64,000 bases of DNA from an uncultured Dehalococcoidia bacterium (GTDB lineage: Bacteria > Chloroflexota > Dehalococcoidia > Lucifugimonadales > UBA3495), in NCBI GenBank assembly GCA_958296225.1, contig OY282456.1, positions 3,600,768 through 3,664,767 on the forward strand, in the 5' to 3' direction. Made by a program: the position numbers and the translations under genes. This document shows positions 10,070 through 29,266 of the stretch, in pieces. The notes beneath the pieces were generated by a model, which searched no databases, was not told where the DNA came from, and worked only from the letters and a program-made list of their open reading frames with translations. The first letter of the stretch is position 1; each line of letters starts with the position of its first letter.

Positions 10070-10736
10070 AGTCCTCCCACAGCATTGTTTCAAAGCGGTG
10101 GGCAAGCTGGACTTGGGTGACTCTTACCTCGTAGTCTTCGGCCACGGTATGATAATCCCCGTCTTCCGCCAGCAAGGCTTGATGCAGGATGTATGTTGGC
10201 ACGTAGCAACCACATAGCACAGGTGAGCCAAAAGACAGGCGCGGGTCAATTACTACAACGGCGTCCGGGGCAGCAATGTTCCATTCTTGGGAAATGTTCC
10301 ACCTTATGGGTATGCCTTGCTCGTCATACTCAATGGGCGCGGTCAACGATTTCAACTCTGCCGGGTCGTGCTTGAATACTTGGCGATCGTGGGTAAGAAA
10401 GCGGTGGTGAGACAGGACGTGGTCTTTGTTGCCGAGCTTTTTTGCATCGTAACGCGCAAAGTGGCATACTTCATGCCATGGTATCCCAATTTTATGCAGG
10501 GCCCGGGCAACGCGGAGTTCCATCAAGTCCCGGAACGCCAGGAAGGATTCCCGCCGCCGAGGTTGCTCACCCCATGGCTTGCCGTCGCCGTCGCGCTGAC
10601 GGGCGTAGCTCCGCACGTGTCGCAGCGAAAACCGGACCAAGCGAGCCGACAGGGCAACGGAGTAGCTCCCCGCGTATCGCTCAATCTTGCGGGAAACCGG
10701 ATAGTTGGTCAAGGGTAGATTGTCTGCTGCGAGCAT
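10053..10736 (-). CDS. DUF433 domain protein with N-terminal HTH-like extension (putative antitoxin)
   Basis: C-terminal DPRLSFGSPVLCGCYVPTYILHQALLAEDGDYHTVAEDYEV matches the DUF433 signature. About 150-aa N-terminal extension. Confidence 0.65.
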   Translation of the reverse strand: MLAADNLPLTNYPVSRKIERYAGSYSVALSARLVRFSLRHVRSYARQRDGDGKPWGEQPRRRESFLAFRDLMELRVARALHKIGIPWHEVCHFARYDAKKLGNKDHVLSHHRFLTHDRQVFKHDPAELKSLTAPIEYDEQGIPIRWNISQEWNIAAPDAVVVIDPRLSFGSPVLCGCYVPTYILHQALLAEDGDYHTVAEDYEVRVTQVQLAHRFETMLWEDYAISS

Positions 10737-10776
10737 AATTGCCTCGTTACACTGCGGTTTTGACCGTCTCCAATAT

Positions 10777-12911: not shown

Positions 12912-13337
12912 GTGATTGTGCCGGACATCAACCTGCTGGTGTACGCTTATAACGAAGGCTCGCCTCACCACGACGCAGCGCTGCGTTGGTGGGAAGTGCT
13001 GATGAACGGCACCGAGCAGGTTGGCCTGCCCTGGATTGTCGCAGTCGGGTTTGTAAGACTGACGACTAATCCCGCAATGCTGACGCCGCCCATGACGCCG
13101 GCGCAGGCAGTTGGCTATGTCCGGGATTGGCTGCGTCGCGACCATGTCACGCCCCTCAATCCCGGCCCGGAGCACCTTGCGCTCCTGCAACAGAATCTTG
13201 CTGCGGCCGGGGCCGGCGCTAACCTGGTTCCCGACGCCCACATCGCGGCGCTGGCCATGGAATACGGGGCCGAAGTACATTCCAACGACGCTGACTTTGC
13301 CCGGTTTCCCGGCCTGCAATGGCACAACCCGTTGTAA
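12912..13337 (+). CDS. vapC: type II toxin VapC (PIN domain ribonuclease)
   Basis: (GTG)IVPDINLLVYAY...PWIVAVGFVRLTTNP...VPDAHIAALAMEYGAEVHSNDADFARF shows the conserved PIN acidic residues. Confidence 0.85.
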   Translation: MIVPDINLLVYAYNEGSPHHDAALRWWEVLMNGTEQVGLPWIVAVGFVRLTTNPAMLTPPMTPAQAVGYVRDWLRRDHVTPLNPGPEHLALLQQNLAAAGAGANLVPDAHIAALAMEYGAEVHSNDADFARFPGLQWHNPL

Positions 13338-13347
13338 CGGGCCTTGC

Positions 13348-14907
13348 CTACCGGCTCCGCAGCGCCCGCCCCGGCAGCGCCCCCGTATGCCGCCCATCGT
13401 CAATAACCAGCGTTCCGTTGACGGCCACGTAGTCGATGCCTACCGGGAATTGCAGCGGGTCGTCAAAAGTTGCCGGCGTGTCCACCTGCTGCGGGTCAAA
13501 CAAAACCAAATCCGCTTTGGCGCCGTCCCGTATCACCCCCCGGTCGGCCAGGCCCAGCCTTTGCGCCGGCGCGCCGGTCATCTTGCGGATGGCTTCCTCC
13601 AGCGGGAACAGTCCTTCGCCGCGCACGAATTGGGCCAGCACGTAGGGATAGGTGCCGTAGGTGCGCGGGTTGGGCCGGCCGCCGGTCAGGATGGCGTCGC
13701 TGCCAATCATCTGCGCCGGATGCGCGGCAATCTCGCGGATGTTTTCCAGGTTGCCGGTGCGGGCTACGAAAGCGACTTGCAGGTTTTCTTCCAGCAGCAG
13801 GTCGCACACTGCGTCCACCATGCGACCGCCCCGGTGCCGGGCCAGCTCCTCCAGCGAGCGGCCTTCCCACTCTTTGTTTTTATCCGAGGCGATGTTAGCG
13901 AAAATGTAATTGTCCAGCGTCTGGCCGCCCCACTGCGGTTCCACGGCCCGCACCATCAAATCGCGCACGTTGGGGTTGGCGATGCGCGCCAGCAGCGCTT
14001 GCGGCCCGCCGGCGTGCACCCAATAGGGCAGCAGCGAGTGCAGGATAGTGCTGGCCGCCGGGTAGGGATACTGGTCATAGGTTACGTCCTGCCCCCGGTT
14101 GCGGGCGTCGTCCACCAGCGCCGTCATCTGCGCGCCCAGGCCGGCCACCGGGCTGTGGTAGTGGGAGATATGCACCGGCGCGCCGGAGCGTCGTCCGATT
14201 GCCAGCGCCTCCCGAAAGGGGTCCAGCAGGCGGTCGCCCAGAGTGTAGCGGGCGTGAGTGCAGTAGAAACCGCCTTCCGCGGCGGCCACGCTGGCGATGG
14301 CCGCCAGTTCGTCCGTGTTGCTGTACGCGCCGGGCGCATAGGTCAGCCCCGTCGTGAACCCAAAGGCCCCGTCGCGCATTCCCTGGCGGGTCAATTCCTG
14401 CATCGTCGCCAACTCTCCGTCGGTGGGCAGGCGCGACGACCAGCCCATGGCGGCCACCCGGATGGCGGCGTGGGGTACGAAGTGCAGCACGTTGCAAGCC
14501 GAGTTGCCGTCAAACAGCGCCAGAAAATCGGCCACGCTGCTCCAGCGCACGTCCGGCGGCGTGCCGTTCACCGCCGCCAGATAGACCAGCAGCTGCTCCA
14601 GGCCCCGGGGCGTCGTCGGAGCATAGGACAGGCCGTCCATCCCCAAAGCCTCGGTGGTAACGCCCTGCCGGATTTTGGCCTCGTGAGCCGGCTCCGTAAG
14701 CAGTTTCAGGTCGGAATGGGAGTGCATATCAATGAAGCCGGGGCAAATCACGTAGCGGCTCGCATCGACGACGCGCCCCGCGTCAATGGCCGAAACGTCG
14801 CCGGAGATGACTTGCACCGTGTCGCCGGTAACGGCCACGCTGCCCCGGTACCCGGCCGCGCCGGCGCCGTCGATAATCGTCCCGTTAGCGAATAGCAAAT
14901 CAGCCAT
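13348..14907 (-). CDS. N-acyl-D-amino-acid deacylase (D-aminoacylase) family amidohydrolase
   Basis: MADLLFANGTIIDG...PGFIDMHSHSD...VHISHYH. Real start is ATG 14907. The track ORF 13348..16209 is an artefactual upstream extension running antisense through sufT and mrp. Confidence 0.85.
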   Translation of the reverse strand: MADLLFANGTIIDGAGAAGYRGSVAVTGDTVQVISGDVSAIDAGRVVDASRYVICPGFIDMHSHSDLKLLTEPAHEAKIRQGVTTEALGMDGLSYAPTTPRGLEQLLVYLAAVNGTPPDVRWSSVADFLALFDGNSACNVLHFVPHAAIRVAAMGWSSRLPTDGELATMQELTRQGMRDGAFGFTTGLTYAPGAYSNTDELAAIASVAAAEGGFYCTHARYTLGDRLLDPFREALAIGRRSGAPVHISHYHSPVAGLGAQMTALVDDARNRGQDVTYDQYPYPAASTILHSLLPYWVHAGGPQALLARIANPNVRDLMVRAVEPQWGGQTLDNYIFANIASDKNKEWEGRSLEELARHRGGRMVDAVCDLLLEENLQVAFVARTGNLENIREIAAHPAQMIGSDAILTGGRPNPRTYGTYPYVLAQFVRGEGLFPLEEAIRKMTGAPAQRLGLADRGVIRDGAKADLVLFDPQQVDTPATFDDPLQFPVGIDYVAVNGTLVIDDGRHTGALPGRALRSR

Positions 14908-14976
14908 CGTCGCCCTCCCCGGCTGGCGCCGTCGTTCCATTAGTTGCCCCGGAATCATACACCGCGGCGACCGACA

Positions 14977-15006
14977 TTGTACAAAGCAGACCGACCTCCC
15001 TATAAT
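14977..15006 (+). promoter_or_regulatory. candidate sigma-70 type promoter TTGTAC-18 nt-TATAAT
   Basis: Lies in the divergent intergenic region between the D-aminoacylase and SufT-like genes, 34 nt upstream of ATG 15040. Confidence 0.35.
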
Positions 15007-15039
15007 GGCTGCAACTACCCATGCCGAAGGAGGCCAACC

Positions 15040-15348
15040 ATGCCGGGAACGGTAAATAGCGATGAAGTCTACGAAGCGCTCCGCACAGTCTATGACCCGG
15101 AAATCCCGGTCAACGTGGTGGACTTGGGCCTGATTTACGATGTGCAGGTCAGCGACGCCAACGACGTGTTCGTTCAGATGACCCTGACCTTCCCCGGCTG
15201 CGGCATGGGGCCGCACATCGCCCAGCAAGCCGAGTGGGCCATTCAGGACGTGGAAGGCGTCGAGGAAGTCAACATCGAACTGACTTTCGATCCGCCCTGG
15301 TCTCCCGACCTGATTAGCGAAGAAGCCCGCAATATGCTGGGTATCTAG
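15040..15348 (+). CDS. DUF59/MIP18-family Fe-S assembly protein (SufT-like)
   Basis: VYEALRTVYDPEIPVNVVDLGLIYDV...FPGCGMGP. AGGAGG 5 nt before ATG 15040. Confidence 0.85.
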   Translation: MPGTVNSDEVYEALRTVYDPEIPVNVVDLGLIYDVQVSDANDVFVQMTLTFPGCGMGPHIAQQAEWAIQDVEGVEEVNIELTFDPPWSPDLISEEARNMLGI

Positions 15349-15408
15349 GCAACGCCGCCATTCCCGCGCCAGCCGGAATGACCAAATCGGATTGGAGATT
15401 ACCGCACG

Positions 15409-16230
15409 ATGGCAACCCCGCAGCAGCCCAACGCTCAGCAGAACGCCCGCTTGCAGCAAATCCGACGCCAATGGGAGCAGAAGCGGCAGATTACCGACCG
15501 CCTCGCCGCCGTCCGCACCAAAATCGGCGTGTACAGCGGCAAGGGCGGCGTCGGCAAAACCACCGTCGCCTGCAACCTGGCTACCATCCTGGCCGCCCAG
15601 GGCGAGCGGGTGGGGTTGCTGGACGTGGACATCGATTGCCCCAACGTTACCCGCGTTATGGGCATCCTGGACAAACCCGACTACCGGGACGGTCAAATCA
15701 GCCCCGCCCAGGGCCACGGCGTCAAAGTGGTGTCCATGGCCTTTTTCCAGGAAAACGAGGACGAGGCCATCATCTGGCGCGGCCCGATGATTCACAACGC
15801 CATTAACCAGTTTCTGCAAGCCACCGATTGGGGCGAACTGGACTACCTCATCGTTGACTTGCCGCCGGGAACTTCGGACTCCCCGCTCACCGTGATGCAG
15901 ACGCTGCCCATGGACGGGTTCATCGTAGTCAGCACCCCCCAGGACCTGGCCATCATTGACGCCAAACGCTGCATCAATATGATTCGCAAGCTGAATCTGA
16001 ACGTCGTTGGCGTGGTCGAAAACTACTCCGGGGACATCTTCGGCGAAGGCGCCGGCCGCCAGCTGGCCGACGACATCGACGCCCCGTTCCTGGGCAGTAT
16101 GTCCCTGCGCGGGGCCTACCGCGACACCAGCCGCCCCACCGTGCTGGTAGATGAAACGGTCAGCAAAGAGTACGCCGCCGTAGCCGACCAGCTGCGACAT
16201 AGCCTGCAAGCCCTAGGCCTGGAAGCCTAG
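15409..16230 (+). CDS. Mrp/NBP35 (ApbC) family iron-sulfur cluster carrier ATPase
   Basis: Deviant Walker A GKGGVGKTTVACNLA, DVDIDCPN and DYLIVDLPPGTSD. Confidence 0.9.
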   Translation: MATPQQPNAQQNARLQQIRRQWEQKRQITDRLAAVRTKIGVYSGKGGVGKTTVACNLATILAAQGERVGLLDVDIDCPNVTRVMGILDKPDYRDGQISPAQGHGVKVVSMAFFQENEDEAIIWRGPMIHNAINQFLQATDWGELDYLIVDLPPGTSDSPLTVMQTLPMDGFIVVSTPQDLAIIDAKRCINMIRKLNLNVVGVVENYSGDIFGEGAGRQLADDIDAPFLGSMSLRGAYRDTSRPTVLVDETVSKEYAAVADQLRHSLQALGLEA

Positions 16231-19603: not shown

Positions 19604-19656
19604 AGGGTAACGATGCCCGGATGCCCGCAGGATGTCAAGTTGGCGGGCGAGTGAGC

Positions 19657-20190
19657 AGTAGCGTTCCGTTGTAGGTGGTTTGGTTTATGAGGCCCCGGTT
19701 TTGGAGTAATACCGGCAGGTTGTGCGGTGTCCATACGGCGCCCATCTTTTCTCGCCGCCGCAGCTCCCGGTGGTGCCGTTCCAAAGGGGAGGTCGTCTTG
19801 TGCCGCGCTTGCCCGGTGGCCAAATGCCGCCGTCCTTCCCCCAGGGCTTTCCGGCACCAGTACGTCCTCTGGCCTCCGGTCAACGCGGCCACCCGCGCCG
19901 CATAGCCCCTGGCCTCCGCCAGGCCGGACGATGCCAGTAGTCGCCGCGCCTCACGCCAGCCCTTCTCCCCAATGTTCCGCCGGTACTCCCGCAGCAGATG
20001 AAAATGGCAGAGCTGGTGGGGCGCTTGCCGGCCATAAACCATCGGGATGGCCGCGGCGATGGCCGCATCCCCGTCGCTCACCAGGTGCGTTGGCTGGATT
20101 GGCTCCCTGCCGACAAGCCCGGTCAATCTGACTTCGGAGCCGGTATTTGCAGCCATCCTACAACTAAACCACCTGAAACGGAACGCTGCC
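19657..20190 (-). mobile_element. TIR-bounded internally deleted IS carrying the C-terminal third of an IS256/MULE-like DDE transposase
   Basis: Ends AGTAGCGTTCCGTTGTAGGTGGTTTGGTT and reverse complement GGCAGCGTTCCGTTTCAGGTGGTTTAGTT. The internal ORF (19635..20156) has SDGDAAIAAAI...QLCHFHLLREYRRNI...TTSPLERHHRELRRREK, the IS256-type pattern. The N-terminal roughly two thirds of a normal transposase are missing. Confidence 0.65.
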
Positions 20191-22711: not shown

Positions 22712-22802
22712 GCTTCCCCCATAGGTTAAGGGGGCCGATGCAGAAGGGATGCTGCCTGTGCGATAGTGATGGTATCCATCTAACCACTATCGGAGCTTCC
22801 TT

Positions 22803-23365
22803 GTGAGCAATATACCGGAGGTTGCCCAGGCCCGGCATCGCCTTCTCACCGATGTCTCCGGACAAGCCGCGTCCGCGACGGGACTGGTACAACGGCGTTC
22901 CAGACTCACCGGCCCCGGCTTTGCCCAGACCCTGGTTTTGGGGTGGCTGGCAAACCCTGAGGCTAGCCTCGCGGCCCGCATCCGGACGGCGGCCGTGTTG
23001 GGGGCGCCAGTCAGTCCGCAAGCCCGGTTCCGGCGGTTCACCCCCAGGCGGCGGAATGTTAATACCAAGTCCTGCCGGAGGCGGTGTCCGCGGTGATTGC
23101 CACTGCCCCGGTGGCGATTCCCATATTGCGGCGGTTCAGCGTGGCGCTAAACCGGAGCCCCGGACGCCCCGCAGCAAACAATCGCCGCTTTATCAACGCC
23201 GTGTTCCGGGTACTGCGCGCCGGCGCTCCCGGGCGCGATTTGCCCCCGGACTACGGCGATTGGAGAAACACTCACCGCCGCTTTATTCGCTGGCGCAATA
23301 AAAACGTGCGGCGTCACGTCATACCTGGCGATTTGCCAGATACGGGCTCTGGCGCTGTGGGCTAA
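22803..23365 (+). pseudogene. juxtaposed fragments of two different transposases (IS4-family N-terminus; IS5/DUF4096-type fragment)
   Basis: ATGLVQRRSRLTGPGFAQTLVLGWLANPEASL...VSPQA and SAVIATAPVAIPILRRF (IS4-like N-terminus, frame-shifted). Then NNRRFINAVFRVLRAGAPGRDLPPDYGDWRNTHRRFIRWRNKNV (DUF4096-type). Neither has a DDE domain. Confidence 0.55.
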
Positions 23366-24049
23366 AATAATTTGACTACTCGCCTTGGGAAGTACACCAG
23401 CTTAGGCACTTCCAGCAGAGTTATAAAGGGATACATCAAGCCGCCGGAGTAGTTGCGCAACAACATAACCGGCGCCGCCCGGCCCGGCGTCATTTCCGGC
23501 GACTCGGTCAAGTGCGCCATAGTGCGGGCATCCGGTGGGCCAGACGGCTCGAAAACCACCACCCGCACTCCACGGACAATCCGCCAGGCGCCGTTTCAAT
23601 CCGTGAGCGCACCGAGGCCCACTCCAAGCGGCCCAAACCGCTGCTCAGCGGCGGCAGCGCAACGGAACGCTGGTATCAGGGTAGCAAGGCGCCGGCCGCC
23701 GGCGACGGCGTTCTTTTATGTTCGCCATCCGATTGTCGTGCCGCCCACCTGACGATTTGCGATTGCGGCATCGCAATGCAGGCCATCGTAGTTGACAATT
23801 GACGCCAGCCGGTCGCCATGAACGATGTGGTAAATCCTGGGATGTTCCGGGGCTGGCATAGTTGGCATAGTTCGGACGTCCCTCCAGCGTAATCGGCAAA
23901 CGCCATTCCTACATTTGTGCTACTATTGTGGCCGGTTGCCGGAATTACCGCAAATGGACGTCGGGCCACGCCAGGCTTCCGGTTAGCCCGTATCCCGGTC
24001 GTCCCTGTGCTAAACTACGCCCATCAACTTCCCACGGAGCCACGCCACT

Positions 24050-25177
24050 ATGACCAGCACCACCAAAGACCCCATCCTCGTCGTCATCCAGCTTACCGGC
24101 GGCAACGACTACCTGAATACCGTCATCCCCTATGCCGACGGGCGTTATCACGACAGCCGGCCTACCGTGGGCGTCCCTGCCTCCGATGTGCTGGCCATTG
24201 ACGACCGCTTCGGTTTCAACCCGGCGCTGGCGGAAATCAAGACCCTCTACGACGCCGGCAGGGTGGCCGTCATCAACGGCATTGGCTATCCCACGCCCAA
24301 CCGTTCCCACTTCCGCAGCATGGACATCTGGCACACCTGCGAGCCGGAAAAGGTGGGCACCGAAGGCTGGCTGGGCCGCGTCATCCGCGACCTTGACCCT
24401 CACGCCGAAAACGTGCTCACCGGCGTCAACTTCGGGCGCGGCCTCCCCCGGGCCATGGCCTTGACCGGCGTGCCCGTGGCCTCCGTGGCCGTGCTGGAGA
24501 CCTACGGCGTGCTGACCGGCATCACCGGCGAGCCGGAACGTTCCCAGGCGTTGGATATTTTCGCCCGTATGTACTCCCCCACCGTCGGCCTGGGCGCCAC
24601 CATGGACTACCTGGGGCAGACCGGCCTCGACGCCCTGAAAGGCGCCGACATCCTCAAAGCCGCCCCCGATAGATACGCTTCCAGCGTGGAATACGCCGAT
24701 ACCGGCATCGCCCGCAACTTGCAGGGCATCGCCAAGGTGCTCACCGCCAACCTGGGCACCCGCGTTTTCTACACCCAGCAGGGCGGCTACGACACCCACG
24801 CCAGCGAGGAGACCGTGCACCCCAAACTGCTGGCCGACCTGAGCCGCGCCGTCAGCGATTTCTACGCCGACCTGCGCGAGCATAACGCCGCTGATAACGT
24901 GGTAATGTTCGCCTTTACCGAATTCGGCCGGCGCGTCAAGGACAACGGCAGCGGTACCGACCACGGCAGCGGCGGCGTAGCCTTCGCCATCGGCGACCCG
25001 GTGTCCGGCGGCATATACGGCGAATACCCGTCCCTGGCCGAGGCCGATTTGGTAGAGGGTGACCTGGCATTCAACACCGACTTCCGCGGCGTCTATGGAA
25101 CGCTGGTTGAGCAGTGGCTGGGTCTGGACGCCAACCCCGTCGTGGGCGGCAGTTTCGAGCAGCCGCAGTTTGTGTAG
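24050..25177 (+). CDS. DUF1501 domain-containing protein (sulfatase/alkaline-phosphatase superfamily)
   Basis: ILVVIQLTGGNDYLNTVIPY, PNRSHFRSMDIWH, GGYDTHA and TEFGRRVKDNGSGTDHGSGG. No twin-arginine leader is visible. Confidence 0.85.
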   Translation: MTSTTKDPILVVIQLTGGNDYLNTVIPYADGRYHDSRPTVGVPASDVLAIDDRFGFNPALAEIKTLYDAGRVAVINGIGYPTPNRSHFRSMDIWHTCEPEKVGTEGWLGRVIRDLDPHAENVLTGVNFGRGLPRAMALTGVPVASVAVLETYGVLTGITGEPERSQALDIFARMYSPTVGLGATMDYLGQTGLDALKGADILKAAPDRYASSVEYADTGIARNLQGIAKVLTANLGTRVFYTQQGGYDTHASEETVHPKLLADLSRAVSDFYADLREHNAADNVVMFAFTEFGRRVKDNGSGTDHGSGGVAFAIGDPVSGGIYGEYPSLAEADLVEGDLAFNTDFRGVYGTLVEQWLGLDANPVVGGSFEQPQFV

Positions 25178-25192
25178 GGAGAGGTGACGCCA

Positions 25193-25594
25193 ATGACGCA
25201 GAGTATGATATTGCCCGGCTCTAACATCGGAGGAAAAGGAGTGGGGACATTCAACATCGAATTCAACATTGGCAGCGCGGACGGCGGCCATTCGCTCCCC
25301 TTGGCGGGAATGGTGGATACTGGCTCGCTTTACTCCATCATCCCGGCGTCAATTTTGGACGAGCTGGGCATTGCGCGGGATGAGGATGAATTGTTCAGCC
25401 TTGCCAACGGGTCGGTTGTGGAAATGTCCATCGGGCTGGCGCTCGTCACAATAAATGGCCGGGCTAGAACCGTTCACGTTGCTTTTGGCTACGACGACGA
25501 AGTTATTCTGATTGGCGCGATGACTCTGGAGCGATTTGGGGTTGCTGCCGACCCGGTTCACCAGCGACTGGTTCCAGCCCGAGTGACGATGTAA
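25193..25594 (+). CDS. retropepsin-like (clan AA) aspartic protease, copy 1
   Basis: MVDTGSLYSIIPASILDELGI (DTG active-site motif) and ILIGAMTLERFG. GGGAGAGG upstream. Start could also be GTG 25184. Confidence 0.75.
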   Translation: MTQSMILPGSNIGGKGVGTFNIEFNIGSADGGHSLPLAGMVDTGSLYSIIPASILDELGIARDEDELFSLANGSVVEMSIGLALVTINGRARTVHVAFGYDDEVILIGAMTLERFGVAADPVHQRLVPARVTM

Positions 25595-25608
25595 CCGGAG
25601 AAAAGTTT

Positions 25609-26046
25609 ATGATGACGCAGCCGCGACTTACCGAGCAGCAGCAACCTTTTGTGTACCCGTTGATACTGCCGGGAACCACCATCGGGGGCCAAGTAGAGAT
25701 TCTTAACGTGCCGCTCATCGTCTATAGCCCGGATATGTCCCAGTCGCGTTCTCTCGTCGGCATGGTGGATACCGGGGCCTTGCACACCGTCATTCCGGCG
25801 TCCATCCTGGAGGCTCTGGGCATTCCGGTCTATACGCGCCGGGAGTACCAACTGGCCGACGGCTCTGCCGTCGCGATGCCGCTGGGTTCGGCCCCAATCG
25901 AGCTGGAAGGCGAAATCATCGCCGTGCCGGCGCTGTTTGGCGCAGACCCGCGCAACATTCTGATTGGCGCAACTACGCTGGCTACTTTCGGATGGGCGTC
26001 AGACCCGAAGCATCGGCGTTTCATTCCCGCCGACCTTACGCTGTGA
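25609..26046 (+). CDS. retropepsin-like (clan AA) aspartic protease, copy 2
   Basis: MVDTGALHTVIPASILEALGI and ILIGATTLATFG. Paralogue of the preceding gene, 14 nt downstream. Confidence 0.75.
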   Translation: MMTQPRLTEQQQPFVYPLILPGTTIGGQVEILNVPLIVYSPDMSQSRSLVGMVDTGALHTVIPASILEALGIPVYTRREYQLADGSAVAMPLGSAPIELEGEIIAVPALFGADPRNILIGATTLATFGWASDPKHRRFIPADLTL

Positions 26047-26055
26047 GGCTACGCT

Positions 26056-26487
26056 ATGACTACCCTGCTACACATCACCGAGGCCGCCATCCGGGCAAAA
26101 TCGACGGAAAAGTCGTATGAGCGCGGCGAGGAGTACTATTGCCAGGGCACAGTGGAGTCAGCGACGCTGCGCGGCAACCGGCTGTTCGCTGAGGTGCAGG
26201 GCAGCGAGTGGGAGCCTTATCAGGTCGGCGTTGCTATCGCCGATGGTGACTTCACCGCATCCTGCACCTGCCCCTACGATTGGGAAGGTTACTGCAAGCA
26301 CATCGTCGCGGCAATGCTGACCTACATCGACCCCGACGATGACCATTCCATCCCCATCGCCACGGCAACTCCCATTGACGACCTGCTGGCCGGGCTGGAC
26401 GCCGCTGCGCTGCGGGTGCTGGTACACCGGCTGATTGACGCCGAACCCAGGCTGGTTGACATCGTGGACGGTTTCTGCAATAGATGA
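26056..26487 (+). CDS. SWIM zinc-finger protein (short, 143 aa)
   Basis: CTCPYDWEGYCKHIVA is the CxCxnCxH SWIM signature. Starts 9 nt after protease 2. Confidence 0.75.
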   Translation: MTTLLHITEAAIRAKSTEKSYERGEEYYCQGTVESATLRGNRLFAEVQGSEWEPYQVGVAIADGDFTASCTCPYDWEGYCKHIVAAMLTYIDPDDDHSIPIATATPIDDLLAGLDAAALRVLVHRLIDAEPRLVDIVDGFCNR

Positions 26488-26571
26488 CAAGTATGACGAA
26501 CCGGGGCAGCGTCAGACGGCGCCCGGACTGCTGACGCAATAGCACGCCAGTCTAGCCGTGTAAAATACAGT

Positions 26572-27768
26572 ATGACTACTCACTCCAACGGTAGCCACTC
26601 CACCCCCACATCTCCCGGTTCCGCCGTCTATGTGGACACCGAAAACCTGCGGGACAACACCCATGCCCAGCAGGTTATCGCCCAGACGGTTGCGGCTTGG
26701 CCGCCTGACCATCCTCCCGTCGGCGCACTCTCCCTCTACGTCCGCGCCGACAAGGAGGAACTGTGGCGGCTGTGGGCTGAGGAGTCGTACCCGGACTTGC
26801 GTATCCGCGTCCGCGGCGTCCAGCATTTCAGCAAAACAGCCGCCAAGAACTCCGCCGACCTGGCCATTACCGCCGACGCCATCGCCGACCTGGCCACCGG
26901 GCAAACCGCCGCCGTCGCCGTCATCAGCAACGATAGTGACTTTGGCGCATTGTTCGTCAAAGTCCGCGAGCTGGCCCGTTCCGCTCACTTGGAGCGCATC
27001 CCCTTCCTCTGGATTATCGCTGAGGGCGGCGGCGCATTGTCGCCGGAAATCGCACAGTTCATCCCGGAGCGGTTCCGGTGGAATTTGTCCGCGCCGCTCC
27101 CGGCGCCGGGGCCAGCGCCTACGGTCGGCAAGGCGACGCCGAAATCGCTGCCAGCGGCGACCAAGCCCGCCCTGCCGGCCGCTCCGGTCGCTAACGACGG
27201 CGCCGACGATGGCAACGAGGCCATCGCTCAGGAATTGATACGCCGGCTGCCCGTCGGAAATTTCAAGGTTGCCGAGGCCCAGAAGGTTATCCAGAAACGT
27301 TGGCCCAAGCTTTCAGTCGCCGGCGATACCGCCAAGCTTGGCCAGTTCCTGCTCAATGAAGTCTGGCCGCTGCTGCAAAAGCGCGGCGTAACGATGCCCC
27401 GCAAGAGCTCGCCGCGCACTTACGAAATCACGCAAGCCGCCAAAAACTCCATTGCGGCGCCAGCAGAGCCGGCTCGCCAGGATAAAACCGCGAACGGAGC
27501 CGCCGAACCCACCCCGGCACAGCTGGCTGCCGCTGTTGCTGGCGGCATAACCAGCGACATCTTTAGCGCATCCGACGCCCAGGCGGCCATCAAAGCACGC
27601 TGGCCAGAGCATCCGGCGGCGGCGGCGATACCGCAACGGTTCGGCGTCTGGTTCAAGAACCACCTCTGGCCGCTGATGGAGCAGCACGGCGTGGCCATCG
27701 CCAAAGAAAAACCCCGCCGCTACGAAATGACTCCCGACGCAAGGCACCGTCTCACCGCCCCCGGCTAG
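26572..27768 (+). CDS. NYN-domain (LabA-like PIN-fold nuclease) protein with two tandem ~80-aa C-terminal repeat domains
   Basis: VYVDTENL..., KNSADLAITADAI and AVISNDSDFGALF (NYN acidic residues). An Ala/Pro linker is followed by two repeats sharing RWP...WPL(L/M).(K/Q).GV...P(R)xYE(I/M)T. Confidence 0.75.
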   Translation: MTTHSNGSHSTPTSPGSAVYVDTENLRDNTHAQQVIAQTVAAWPPDHPPVGALSLYVRADKEELWRLWAEESYPDLRIRVRGVQHFSKTAAKNSADLAITADAIADLATGQTAAVAVISNDSDFGALFVKVRELARSAHLERIPFLWIIAEGGGALSPEIAQFIPERFRWNLSAPLPAPGPAPTVGKATPKSLPAATKPALPAAPVANDGADDGNEAIAQELIRRLPVGNFKVAEAQKVIQKRWPKLSVAGDTAKLGQFLLNEVWPLLQKRGVTMPRKSSPRTYEITQAAKNSIAAPAEPARQDKTANGAAEPTPAQLAAAVAGGITSDIFSASDAQAAIKARWPEHPAAAAIPQRFGVWFKNHLWPLMEQHGVAIAKEKPRRYEMTPDARHRLTAPG

Positions 27769-27886: not shown

Positions 27887-29266
27887 ATGCTCATCAAACG
27901 GACGCCCGACCGCTACGACAAGCTGCAAATCCTCGGTGGTATGCTTGCCTCCGACGACATCCTCACCGGGGGCAAAGTCAGCAGCGGCCCCCACCGCATG
28001 GCCTACTCCGACCCGCGCAAGAATCCTGCCCCCGGCATCTACAAGGCCAGCCTGCCCAACGGCAAGAAAATCAACCTGATGCGCGTGATGTTCACCGACT
28101 TCTGCAAGATGGACTGCGCCTACTGCCCCAACAGCATCTACGTGCCGCGCAAACGCTACGCCTTCAAGCGCGACGAGCTGGCCGACACCTTTATGGAACT
28201 GCACGGCCGCCTGGCCGTGGACGGCCTGTTTCTCAGCTCCGGCATTGCCGGCGACGGCTCCAAAACCACCCAGCGGCTGGTGGAAACCGTGGAAATCATC
28301 CGCAAAAAGCACGGCTTCAAGGGCTACATACATATGAAAGTGATGCCCGGCGCCAGCCGCGAGCTGGTGGAAAAGGCCCACCGCCTGGGCAGCCGCCTGT
28401 CGGTGAACATTGAGACGCCGGAGCCGGATATGATGCGGCGCATCAGCCCGCACAAGGACTTGCAACAAGACATCCTTGACCCCATGGCCTGGATTAACGA
28501 CCTGACGCGGGAAAGCAGCGGCGGCGCCGTGGGCCAGGCCACGCAGTTCGTAGTCGGCGCCGCCGACGAGTCCGACCGCCAGATTTACCGCCGCGTTGAC
28601 CAGATGTATACTGACTGGAACCTCAAGCGCGTCTATTACCCGCCCTTCCGTCCCGCCCGCCATACGCCGATGGAGGAAAAGCCGCCGGTGCCCGCCGGCC
28701 GGGAGCATCGCCTGTACCAGATGGACTGGCTGCGCCGGGTCTATCGGTTCGGCAGCGACGAAATTGACCTGGCCTTTGACCACGGCGGCTTTCTGTCGCT
28801 GGAGCAAGACCCCAAGACGGTCATCGCCATGGAGAACCTGGACGCTTTCCCCATTGACCTGAACACCGCCGGCAAAGACCGGCTGCTCCGCATCCCAGGC
28901 ATCGGCCCGGTGTCCGCCGGCCGCATCCTGGAAAACCGCCGGAATCACACCATTGACAACTGGCGCGACTTGCAGGCCATGGGCGTAGTTCGCAAGCGGG
29001 CCTGGCCCTACGTCGTATTCCCCGGCCAGCGCCCGCCGTCCGGCAAGCAGCTGCGGCTGGACCTGTTCGGCGAGGCGCAAGACCGGCGGGCGGCGGAGGC
29101 GGCCGCCGTCAGCCTGCCACCGCCCAAATCGCCGGCCCTGTCCGCCGTAATGGAGCGGCCGGCGGCGTATCAGGCCAGCGGGTCTTACACCAGCCACGAG
29201 TGCATCCCGGGCAGCCGAGGGGCGATGTGCGCCGGCTGCCCGGTGAACCCGGCGGCGGACGCATAG
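27887..29266 (+). CDS. radical SAM protein with C-terminal helix-hairpin-helix (putative DNA modification/repair radical SAM family, COG4277-like)
   Basis: CKMDCAYCPN (CX3CX2C) and LLRIPGIGPVSAGRILENRR (HhH). Confidence 0.75.
   Translation: MLIKRTPDRYDKLQILGGMLASDDILTGGKVSSGPHRMAYSDPRKNPAPGIYKASLPNGKKINLMRVMFTDFCKMDCAYCPNSIYVPRKRYAFKRDELADTFMELHGRLAVDGLFLSSGIAGDGSKTTQRLVETVEIIRKKHGFKGYIHMKVMPGASRELVEKAHRLGSRLSVNIETPEPDMMRRISPHKDLQQDILDPMAWINDLTRESSGGAVGQATQFVVGAADESDRQIYRRVDQMYTDWNLKRVYYPPFRPARHTPMEEKPPVPAGREHRLYQMDWLRRVYRFGSDEIDLAFDHGGFLSLEQDPKTVIAMENLDAFPIDLNTAGKDRLLRIPGIGPVSAGRILENRRNHTIDNWRDLQAMGVVRKRAWPYVVFPGQRPPSGKQLRLDLFGEAQDRRAAEAAAVSLPPPKSPALSAVMERPAAYQASGSYTSHECIPGSRGAMCAGCPVNPAADA

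Follow-up and report, generated by a model that had tools for sequence, protein, structure and literature searches.

Retropepsins form their active site as dimers. The small stand-alone retropepsin-like proteins of bacteria are, to our knowledge, almost unstudied, with RimB as the sole well-characterized bacterial case. In the RimABK system of Pseudomonas, this small stand-alone retropepsin-like protease is encoded in an operon with its partner, and RimB-RimK hybrids occur (PMC11957791). The locus described here lies in a 64,000-nucleotide stretch of DNA from an uncultured Dehalococcoidia bacterium (contig OY282456.1), referred to as the window. Two adjacent genes for retropepsin-like proteins (AP1 and AP2, of the AP family) and a gene for a SWIM protein occupy a slot between a DUF1501 gene and a gene for an NYN protein, which is followed by a radical SAM-HhH gene (rSAM). 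With a probability of roughly 0.55, this locus is an accessory islet restricted to one genus of uncultured marine, SAR202-type Dehalococcoidia, in which a conserved backbone encloses a hypervariable AP/SWIM slot whose products cooperate, and not a portable multi-gene system.

Like RimB, AP1 and AP2 are predicted to be small cytoplasmic single-lobe clan-AA proteins with one catalytic Asp, and the partner fusions of RimB have, by analogy, a counterpart in fusions of AP with SWIM (PMC11957791). The slot, however, contains neither a RimK ATP-grasp ligase nor RimA. Its partner gene encodes the SWIM module instead, and the AP family is multi-copy (13-15 copies in the source genome) and matches TIGR03698-type and Asp_protease_2 profiles without a Rim context. 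The uncharacterized archaeal and bacterial clan-AA proteins of the TIGR03698/Asp_protease_2 type share the DTG motif, the length of ~120-145 amino acids and the profile matches. The slot APs differ from TIGR03698 in scoring under its cut-off, in an extra N-terminal 'ILPGxxIGG' segment, and in having several relatives that are DTR or dead. The AP family profile weakly matches the structures of the Ddi1 RVP domain, which is the nearest solved structure, and of the HTLV protease.

The SWIM protein is a stand-alone module of 143 amino acids in which a CxCx7CxH zinc finger lies between a helix/beta region at the N-terminus and a helical hairpin at the C-terminus. It scores 25.9 bits against PF04434 (cut-off 19.6), and C70, C72, C80, and H82 do not vary across 45 sequences. 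Its best match in the PDB is the N-terminus of ZSWIM8, on which the whole length of the predicted model (pLDDT 92.7) superposes (TMq 0.66, E 2e-6), but it has neither the long helical C-terminal body nor a cullin-type partner. It is also homologous (40-50% identity) to a widespread bacterial SWIM family of ~600 amino acids, the PADLOC candidate PDC-S62, over the first ~135 residues of that family. No full-length match to PDC-S62 or to DpdE was found, as the aligned positions were only 8-96 of 566 and 7-88 of 1282, respectively. Compared with these proteins, the slot SWIM is a truncated module without the helical body or the SNF2 helicase domain.

The individual domains are all from known families. 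The initial annotation did not recognize their combination as a described system, and the comparison with PADLOC agrees, showing only the partial N-terminal resemblance of SWIM. In PADLOC-DB v2, DUF1501, NYN, and rSAM had no match, and AP matched PDC-M08B only at E ~0.005-0.008. A literature search found no paper on a retropepsin combined with SWIM or with a toxin-antitoxin system; only RimB and APRc surfaced. As far as our knowledge and searches extend, the pairing and fusion of AP and SWIM, the pairing of DTR-motif and DTG-motif APs, and a slot with such birth and death of genes have not been described before.

A variable slot between conserved genes

The source genome is a single contig of 3.97 Mb that contains the window. 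About 20 kb around the locus was fetched and compared in all 36 genomes of the same genus and in two close metagenomic relatives. The backbone order in these genomes is DUF1501, slot, NYN, and usually rSAM directly after NYN. Because the same gene order is found again in 36 same-genus genomes, the packing is not due to chance within this lineage. Close homologues of the cluster proteins come from metagenome-assembled genomes labelled Dehalococcoidia bacterium, Chloroflexota bacterium, and 'SAR202 cluster bacterium bin87'. Across the 36 genomes, the DUF1501 protein is 85-93% identical and rSAM is 82-88% identical, whereas AP is 31-79% and SWIM 58-74% identical. The GC content at third codon positions is 0.65-0.76 in the slot genes versus 0.85-0.86 in the backbone (0.85 in DUF1501). 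Against the closest relative, the ratio of nonsynonymous to synonymous substitution (dN/dS), which rests on small substitution counts, is 0.04 for DUF1501 and likewise for the LLM gene further downstream, and is higher for NYN (0.28) and SWIM (0.37).

The slot holds between 0 and 4 AP genes per genome, and SWIM is present in 18 of the 36 genomes. It is empty in G025 and G035 and contains only SWIM in G001. A single AP is its sole content in 13 genomes, and one AP with SWIM is found in G004, G011, and G016. Two APs followed by SWIM, as in the window, occur in four other genomes; a further AP follows SWIM in seven genomes, and G012 has three APs and SWIM. On a DUF1501 DNA tree of 38 tips, at least 12 changes are needed to account for the presence of SWIM. 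Decay is also seen, as G010 retains only a remnant of SWIM and G026 has a frameshifted SWIM C-terminus. The slot genes are accessory and dispensable; they have been lost, duplicated, rearranged, and fused time and again.

The slot APs fall into five clades, which only one copy from outside the slot joins, the paralogue at genome position 2239364. Since the slot APs form one clade apart from most copies in the genome, the AP array grew locally and not by random arrivals. A possible trace of this growth is found in locus L064 (G029), where a degraded, internally deleted DUF1501 3' end with its own stop codon lies between two APs (~10585-10772, - strand); it corresponds to residues ~281-375, with 49-73% identity. 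This arrangement suggests that AP arrays grow by duplication of a unit composed of the DUF1501 tail and an AP, or by recombination through the gene tail. An integron-type cassette array was considered and rejected, because the gaps of 6-14 nucleotides or overlaps of 4 nucleotides leave no room for attC, and no integrase is present in the open reading frame list.

Mobile elements have also acted on the region. In G012, an insertion sequence (IS) parts DUF1501-AP-AP-AP-SWIM from NYN-rSAM. A transposase fragment of the window (19635-20156, - strand) resembles the IS-derived open reading frames that break the cluster just after SWIM in that genome (L039 8465-9568), which indicates that the same IS family reshapes the region in different species. 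A close relative carries a DUF4096/IS5-type fragment in the upstream region.

The six genes, all on the + strand, are listed in the table below. The open reading frame list and Pfam agree with the initial annotation on the coordinates, on the tight co-directional packing and on the named domains (DUF1501; Asp_protease_2/gag-asp_proteas twice; SWIM; NYN; Radical_SAM with HHH_3). The gaps are 6 or 15, 14, 9, 84, and 118 nucleotides, where the initial annotation gave 7-15 for the first and 85 for the one before NYN. The first value depends on the start of AP1. A GTG start gives 136 amino acids and a gap of 6 nucleotides, and ATG 25193 gives 133 amino acids and a gap of 15. The latter is the start in the public gene call P0241 and, with GGGAGAG in front, is the likely one. 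Shine-Dalgarno-like GGAG/GAGG motifs precede AP1, AP2, SWIM, and rSAM, and inspection of the sequence before the NYN start revealed no evident motif of this kind. With gaps of 6-14 nucleotides or 4-nucleotide overlaps, and each slot gene behind its own Shine-Dalgarno motif, a single transcript is most likely. This transcript would cover the packed genes and would start at DUF1501, which probably heads the transcription unit. A scan for consensus promoters and terminators gave the same counts as shuffled sequence, with nothing at the gene junctions and no clear promoter in the upstream boundary region.

Table 1. Positions of the six genes and of related features. Positions are those of the window unless a genome position (G000:C1, the source genome) or a locus is given.
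Feature	Position	Strand	Source
Upstream boundary, ~1.3 kb without a convincing gene, with IS/transposase fragments	22712-24049		ORF (open reading frame) list and translations
DUF1501	24050-25177	+	ORF list, Pfam
AP1 (retropepsin-like)	25184-25594	+	ORF list, Pfam
AP2 (retropepsin-like)	25609-26046	+	ORF list, Pfam
SWIM	26056-26487	+	ORF list, Pfam
NYN	26572-27768	+	ORF list, Pfam
Radical SAM-HhH (rSAM)	27887-29266	+	ORF list, Pfam
Paralogues of the window DUF1501	G000:C1 621168, 665185, 999536, 2061396, 3762999, 3881756
DTR-DTG AP pair, first two APs after DUF1501	L040, L042, L043, L045-L051, L053, L054, L056
AP-methyltransferase sites	G000:C1 2237665-2239870, 2077621-2078939, 2074321-2076467
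Panacea-domain antitoxin gene adjoining an AP/methyltransferase site	G000:C1 2240008-2240562
Two-gene cassettes, ~100-amino acid protein and retropepsin-like protein	G000:C1 918600-919296, 1005569-1006277

The AP and SWIM proteins of the slot

Gene calls, both our own and public, place 4-nucleotide overlaps at AP/SWIM, SWIM/AP, and SWIM/NYN junctions in many species. In G013, one open reading frame runs through SWIM and the AP that follows it. Four separate public records (P0003, P0306, P0308, and P0309) contain an AP, with the motif DTR or ATR, that continues in frame into SWIM, and P0311 carries the remnant of a SWIM-tail/AP fusion with a dead motif. The occurrence of two independent fusion geometries, AP-SWIM and SWIM-AP, suggests a functional or physical link, and the two proteins probably act together within the slot. 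A full-library phmmer search with P0003 as the query found, among its best 150 matches, no fusion outside the lineage that spans both halves. In the proposed mechanism, the slot would supply a fast-turnover protein from the multi-copy AP family, some of whose members have changed DTG to DTR or lost it, together with the SWIM module. The retropepsin-like protein would dimerize to form an aspartic protease, and the SWIM module would be its binding or targeting adaptor.

Several observations weigh against cooperation of AP and SWIM. The stop and start codons overlap or nearly do, so that a single indel fuses the frames and the fusions could be neutral accidents. The fused AP motifs are degraded (DTR, ATR, VNAQ), a state that could reflect decay instead of a new function. 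SWIM is found alone in G001 and AP alone in 16 genomes, and therefore neither needs the other. Moreover, all co-occurrence lies inside one genus and represents a single evolutionary origin, so function and inheritance are inseparable.

The same observations would also fit pure coincidence of the packing, which the initial annotation rightly named as a possibility. Unrelated orphan or selfish small genes would then gather in a permissive slot between the genes of a conserved operon, and the fusions would be neutral indels. Frequent losses and pseudogenes fit this explanation as well, and elsewhere AP copies are preceded by many unrelated genes. Against it stand the two independent fusion geometries, with the AP-SWIM form open in four diverged records, and the retention of 4-nucleotide overlaps in many species. 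The slot genes are also under purifying selection, judging from the SWIM ratio given above, and the clade formed by the slot APs does not fit with chance arrivals. Coincidence is the best placed of the alternatives, but it is a good deal less probable than an accessory islet with cooperating AP and SWIM.

AP1 and AP2 are 45% identical to each other and carry the complete motifs VDTGS and VDTGA, respectively. AP1 scores 26.3 bits against PF13650 (cut-off 24.3) and 26.9 bits against PF13975, just under the cut-off of 28.2; AP2 scores 31.5 and 31.2 bits, over both cut-offs. By profile and motif, both are assigned to the small cytoplasmic retropepsin-like (clan AA) proteins. Against TIGR03698 (clan_AA_DTGF), they score 37.5 and 38.2 bits, under the curated cut-off of 57.35, and by these scores they are related to this family but are not members of it. 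In the AP alignment A3, D45, T46, and G111-A112 are invariant, and the second hydrophobic-Gly motif is LIGA. In several AP relatives, the catalytic motif has changed to DTR, ATR, or VNAQ.

The initial annotation proposed that the two adjacent paralogues form an obligate heterodimer, a proposal that does not survive comparison with the relatives. AP1 belongs to slot clade D (VDTGSL), found in 16 genomes, and AP2 to slot clade A (VDTGAL), found in 7 genomes. The two clades occur together only in the source genome and in G012, plus the closest relative (locus L079), where AP2 is a pseudogene. In this relative, which has 96.6% nucleotide identity over 6.2 kb, AP1 is 99% identical at the amino acid level and intact, and AP2 beside it is broken by two frameshifts. 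The clade distribution and the complete DTG motif in both proteins rule out an obligate heterodimer. AP1 and AP2 would instead be two independent paralogues, each capable of forming a homodimer.

The pairing idea may hold elsewhere in the AP family. An AP clade with the DTR motif always directly precedes a DTG clade, often overlapping it by a few nucleotides, in 13 of 13 genomes, although these genomes share ancestry and count as one observation and not thirteen. The DTR and DTG proteins may form a pair of pseudo-enzyme and enzyme.

The backbone genes

On the upstream side, the conserved backbone gene of the islet is DUF1501. It encodes a leaderless protein of 375 amino acids from an alkaline-phosphatase/sulfatase-like family (PF07394, E 2.8e-22). 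The source genome has seven such paralogues, which are 59-66% identical. The leaderless DUF1501 subfamily is common in the class, being found in 70 of 251 genomes (E <= 1e-40). DUF1501 was considered as a functional partner of AP and rejected, as the other six paralogues in the genome and 29 homologues elsewhere have no adjoining AP.

The NYN protein matches PF01936 with 31.8 bits (cut-off 24.2). NYN nucleases of the LabA-like/MARF1 type are fused to OST-HTH/LOTUS domains (PMC2848206). The window protein resembles them in its N-terminal NYN domain, whose acidic residues are conserved, and in the small tandem domains of winged-helix type that come after it. The tandem C-terminal domains noticed in the initial annotation are borne out by the AlphaFold model (mean pLDDT 79), which has the NYN domain at residues 17-171 and two winged-helix repeats at 215-294 and 315-395. 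The predicted topology of the repeats, H-E-H-H-E-E(-H), is compatible with a winged helix. By Foldseek, the NYN domain matches 2qip (LabA-like) and the NYN domain of MARF1, and the repeats have structural matches to generic winged helices only (forkhead, PadR). Compared with the LabA-like/MARF1 type, the repeats gave no Pfam match to OST-HTH/LOTUS (PF12872) at E <= 0.01, and all 247 members of the full-length family come from this lineage. Across 41 sequences, residues D22, D96, D102, D121, and D123 do not vary. The protein is a predicted PIN-like RNase with two winged-helix repeats.

The NYN gene is present in 35 of the 36 genomes, where its products are 50-70% identical, and extra divergent NYN paralogues occur in G013, G021, and G012. 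It is the downstream member of the conserved backbone and is independent of the slot genes. A toxin role for NYN with AP/SWIM as the antidote was rejected, as NYN persists where the slot is empty.

The rSAM protein has matches to PF04055 and PF12836. In the TIGR03916/TIGR03915 pair, a putative DNA modification or repair radical SAM protein is accompanied by a UDG-like partner. The window rSAM shares the radical SAM core and C-terminal HhH with TIGR03916 but is sub-threshold and partner-less. Its match is strong but partial, as the score of 285.9 bits (E 6e-85) is under the curated cut-off of 343.5, and the whole genome has no TIGR03915 gene (the search was positive in 2 of 14 control genomes). 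On these scores, rSAM is a divergent relative of TIGR03916 without the usual partner of the family and is not a member by threshold. In 10 genomes of the genus, an M20 peptidase gene follows NYN instead of rSAM. Both DUF1501 and rSAM look like neighbors by descent only, with no support for a link beyond synteny at the genus level. The backbone around the slot consists of a leaderless DUF1501-type hydrolase paralogue, a predicted RNase of NYN-winged-helix type, and usually a partner-less rSAM/HhH enzyme.

A second variable slot is present between rSAM and the LLM gene. In several relatives, such as L078 (G017) at 13734-15677, PRTase-CE (PF24390) and NADAR-HhH genes lie downstream of rSAM. These may be an alternative partner set for the partner-less TIGR03916-like rSAM. 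The window has no PRTase-CE or NADAR-HhH genes after rSAM and has a convergent coiled-coil gene there instead. At the same place, the closest relative L079 has a Fic-domain gene (13222-14382).

Distribution beyond the genus and possible roles

Comparison of gene neighborhoods gave a split result, with the order kept within one genus and absent around the homologues of DUF1501, SWIM, NYN, and AP elsewhere. In other genera, the sister genus (75% identity) among them, none of the 29 best DUF1501 homologues has AP, SWIM, or NYN within 1.5 kb. Among 80 SWIM loci of species representatives, AP or NYN was found only in the ~25 from this genus. No AP or NYN lies within 4 kb of ~20 stand-alone small SWIM genes (45-58% identity) of other Dehalococcoidia, nor of ~35 long SWIM proteins from Anaerolineae, Alphaproteobacteria, and Cyanobacteria. 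No such neighbors surround the NYN homologues of two other families. The 20 AP loci examined in other families contain no SWIM or NYN and have varied, unrelated contexts, and a constant small partner gene beside AP elsewhere in the class was sought among these 20 loci and not found.

The AP family itself is found in 96 of 251 genomes of the class (54 of 164 genera); the copy number reaches 16 or more in some genomes, and stop codons interrupt many of the copies. In the source genome, an HNH gene adjoins one further copy, and another copy is fused to DUF2442. Three copies, one of them a fragment, are each directly upstream of an N6_N4 DNA methyltransferase gene, and in one case the methyltransferase carries a fused Mrr-like nuclease domain (Table 1).

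The islet is possibly conflict-related, and the region behaves like an accessory or defense-type hotspot. In G011, a 391-amino acid gene between SWIM and NYN (L037 9876-11051) matches the PADLOC candidate PDC-M32A over its full length (E 1e-126), which indicates that the slot is able to hold a candidate defense gene. The flanks in relatives contain ParE/HTH, Uma2, Fic, PIN, and methyltransferase genes. A defense or addiction module, which the initial annotation was also right to consider, would use the NYN-winged-helix RNase as the effector and the APs and SWIM as fast-evolving sensors or regulators. For example, the protease would activate or remove an inhibitor, and the DTR/DTG pairs would be heterodimers of pseudo-enzyme and enzyme. 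This explanation would fit a hypervariable slot between conserved flanks, the PDC-M32A candidate, the extra NYN paralogues, the toxin-type and methyltransferase neighbors (ParE/HTH, Fic, PIN) of the relatives, and the proximity of other AP copies to methyltransferases and a Panacea antitoxin. The SWIM module that is common to the N-termini of PDC-S62 and DpdE and the constant order of DTR-type before DTG-type AP are consistent with it as well. However, NYN is kept even where the slot is empty, as in G025, and hence it does not require AP or SWIM as a partner, nor is it an uncontrolled toxin. AP and NYN have no matching PADLOC model, a PHROGs scan of the cluster gave no phage signal, and the combination is never seen outside one genus. 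A conflict module is unlikely.

Also unlikely is a new lineage-born protease-gated nuclease, in which the APs, including DTR-DTG heterodimers, and a SWIM adaptor would control the adjacent NYN RNase while still evolving by duplication, fusion, and loss. Very improbable is one coherent six-gene RNA/DNA-processing system with AP1 and AP2 as an obligate heterodimer: the tight co-directional packing, the genus-wide synteny, and the nucleic acid-related domains (SWIM, NYN, HhH) would suit it, but the AP1 and AP2 clades are mostly apart and the closest relative has an intact AP1 next to an AP2 pseudogene, an M20 peptidase replaces rSAM in 10 genomes, the IS in G012 separates the two halves, no homologue outside the genus shares the neighborhood, and DUF1501 is one of seven metabolic-type paralogues.

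The genus-restricted islet is a natural variant series for reading the partners of AP, with 0-4 copies, DTG and DTR motifs, SWIM fused in either order, and slots with and without SWIM. If the link between AP and SWIM is true, SWIM would be the first candidate adaptor for this retropepsin-like family and a bacterial stand-alone version of the module carried by eukaryotic ZSWIM8. The locus also illustrates that operon-like packing kept in dozens of genomes can still mean one origin within a single genus.

Retropepsin-like genes of a different type are present elsewhere in the source genome. They form two-gene cassettes (Table 1), in which a gene for a ~100-amino acid protein with the pattern MEF..A..IY..KLVVIDV.SGDYE comes first and the retropepsin-like gene second.

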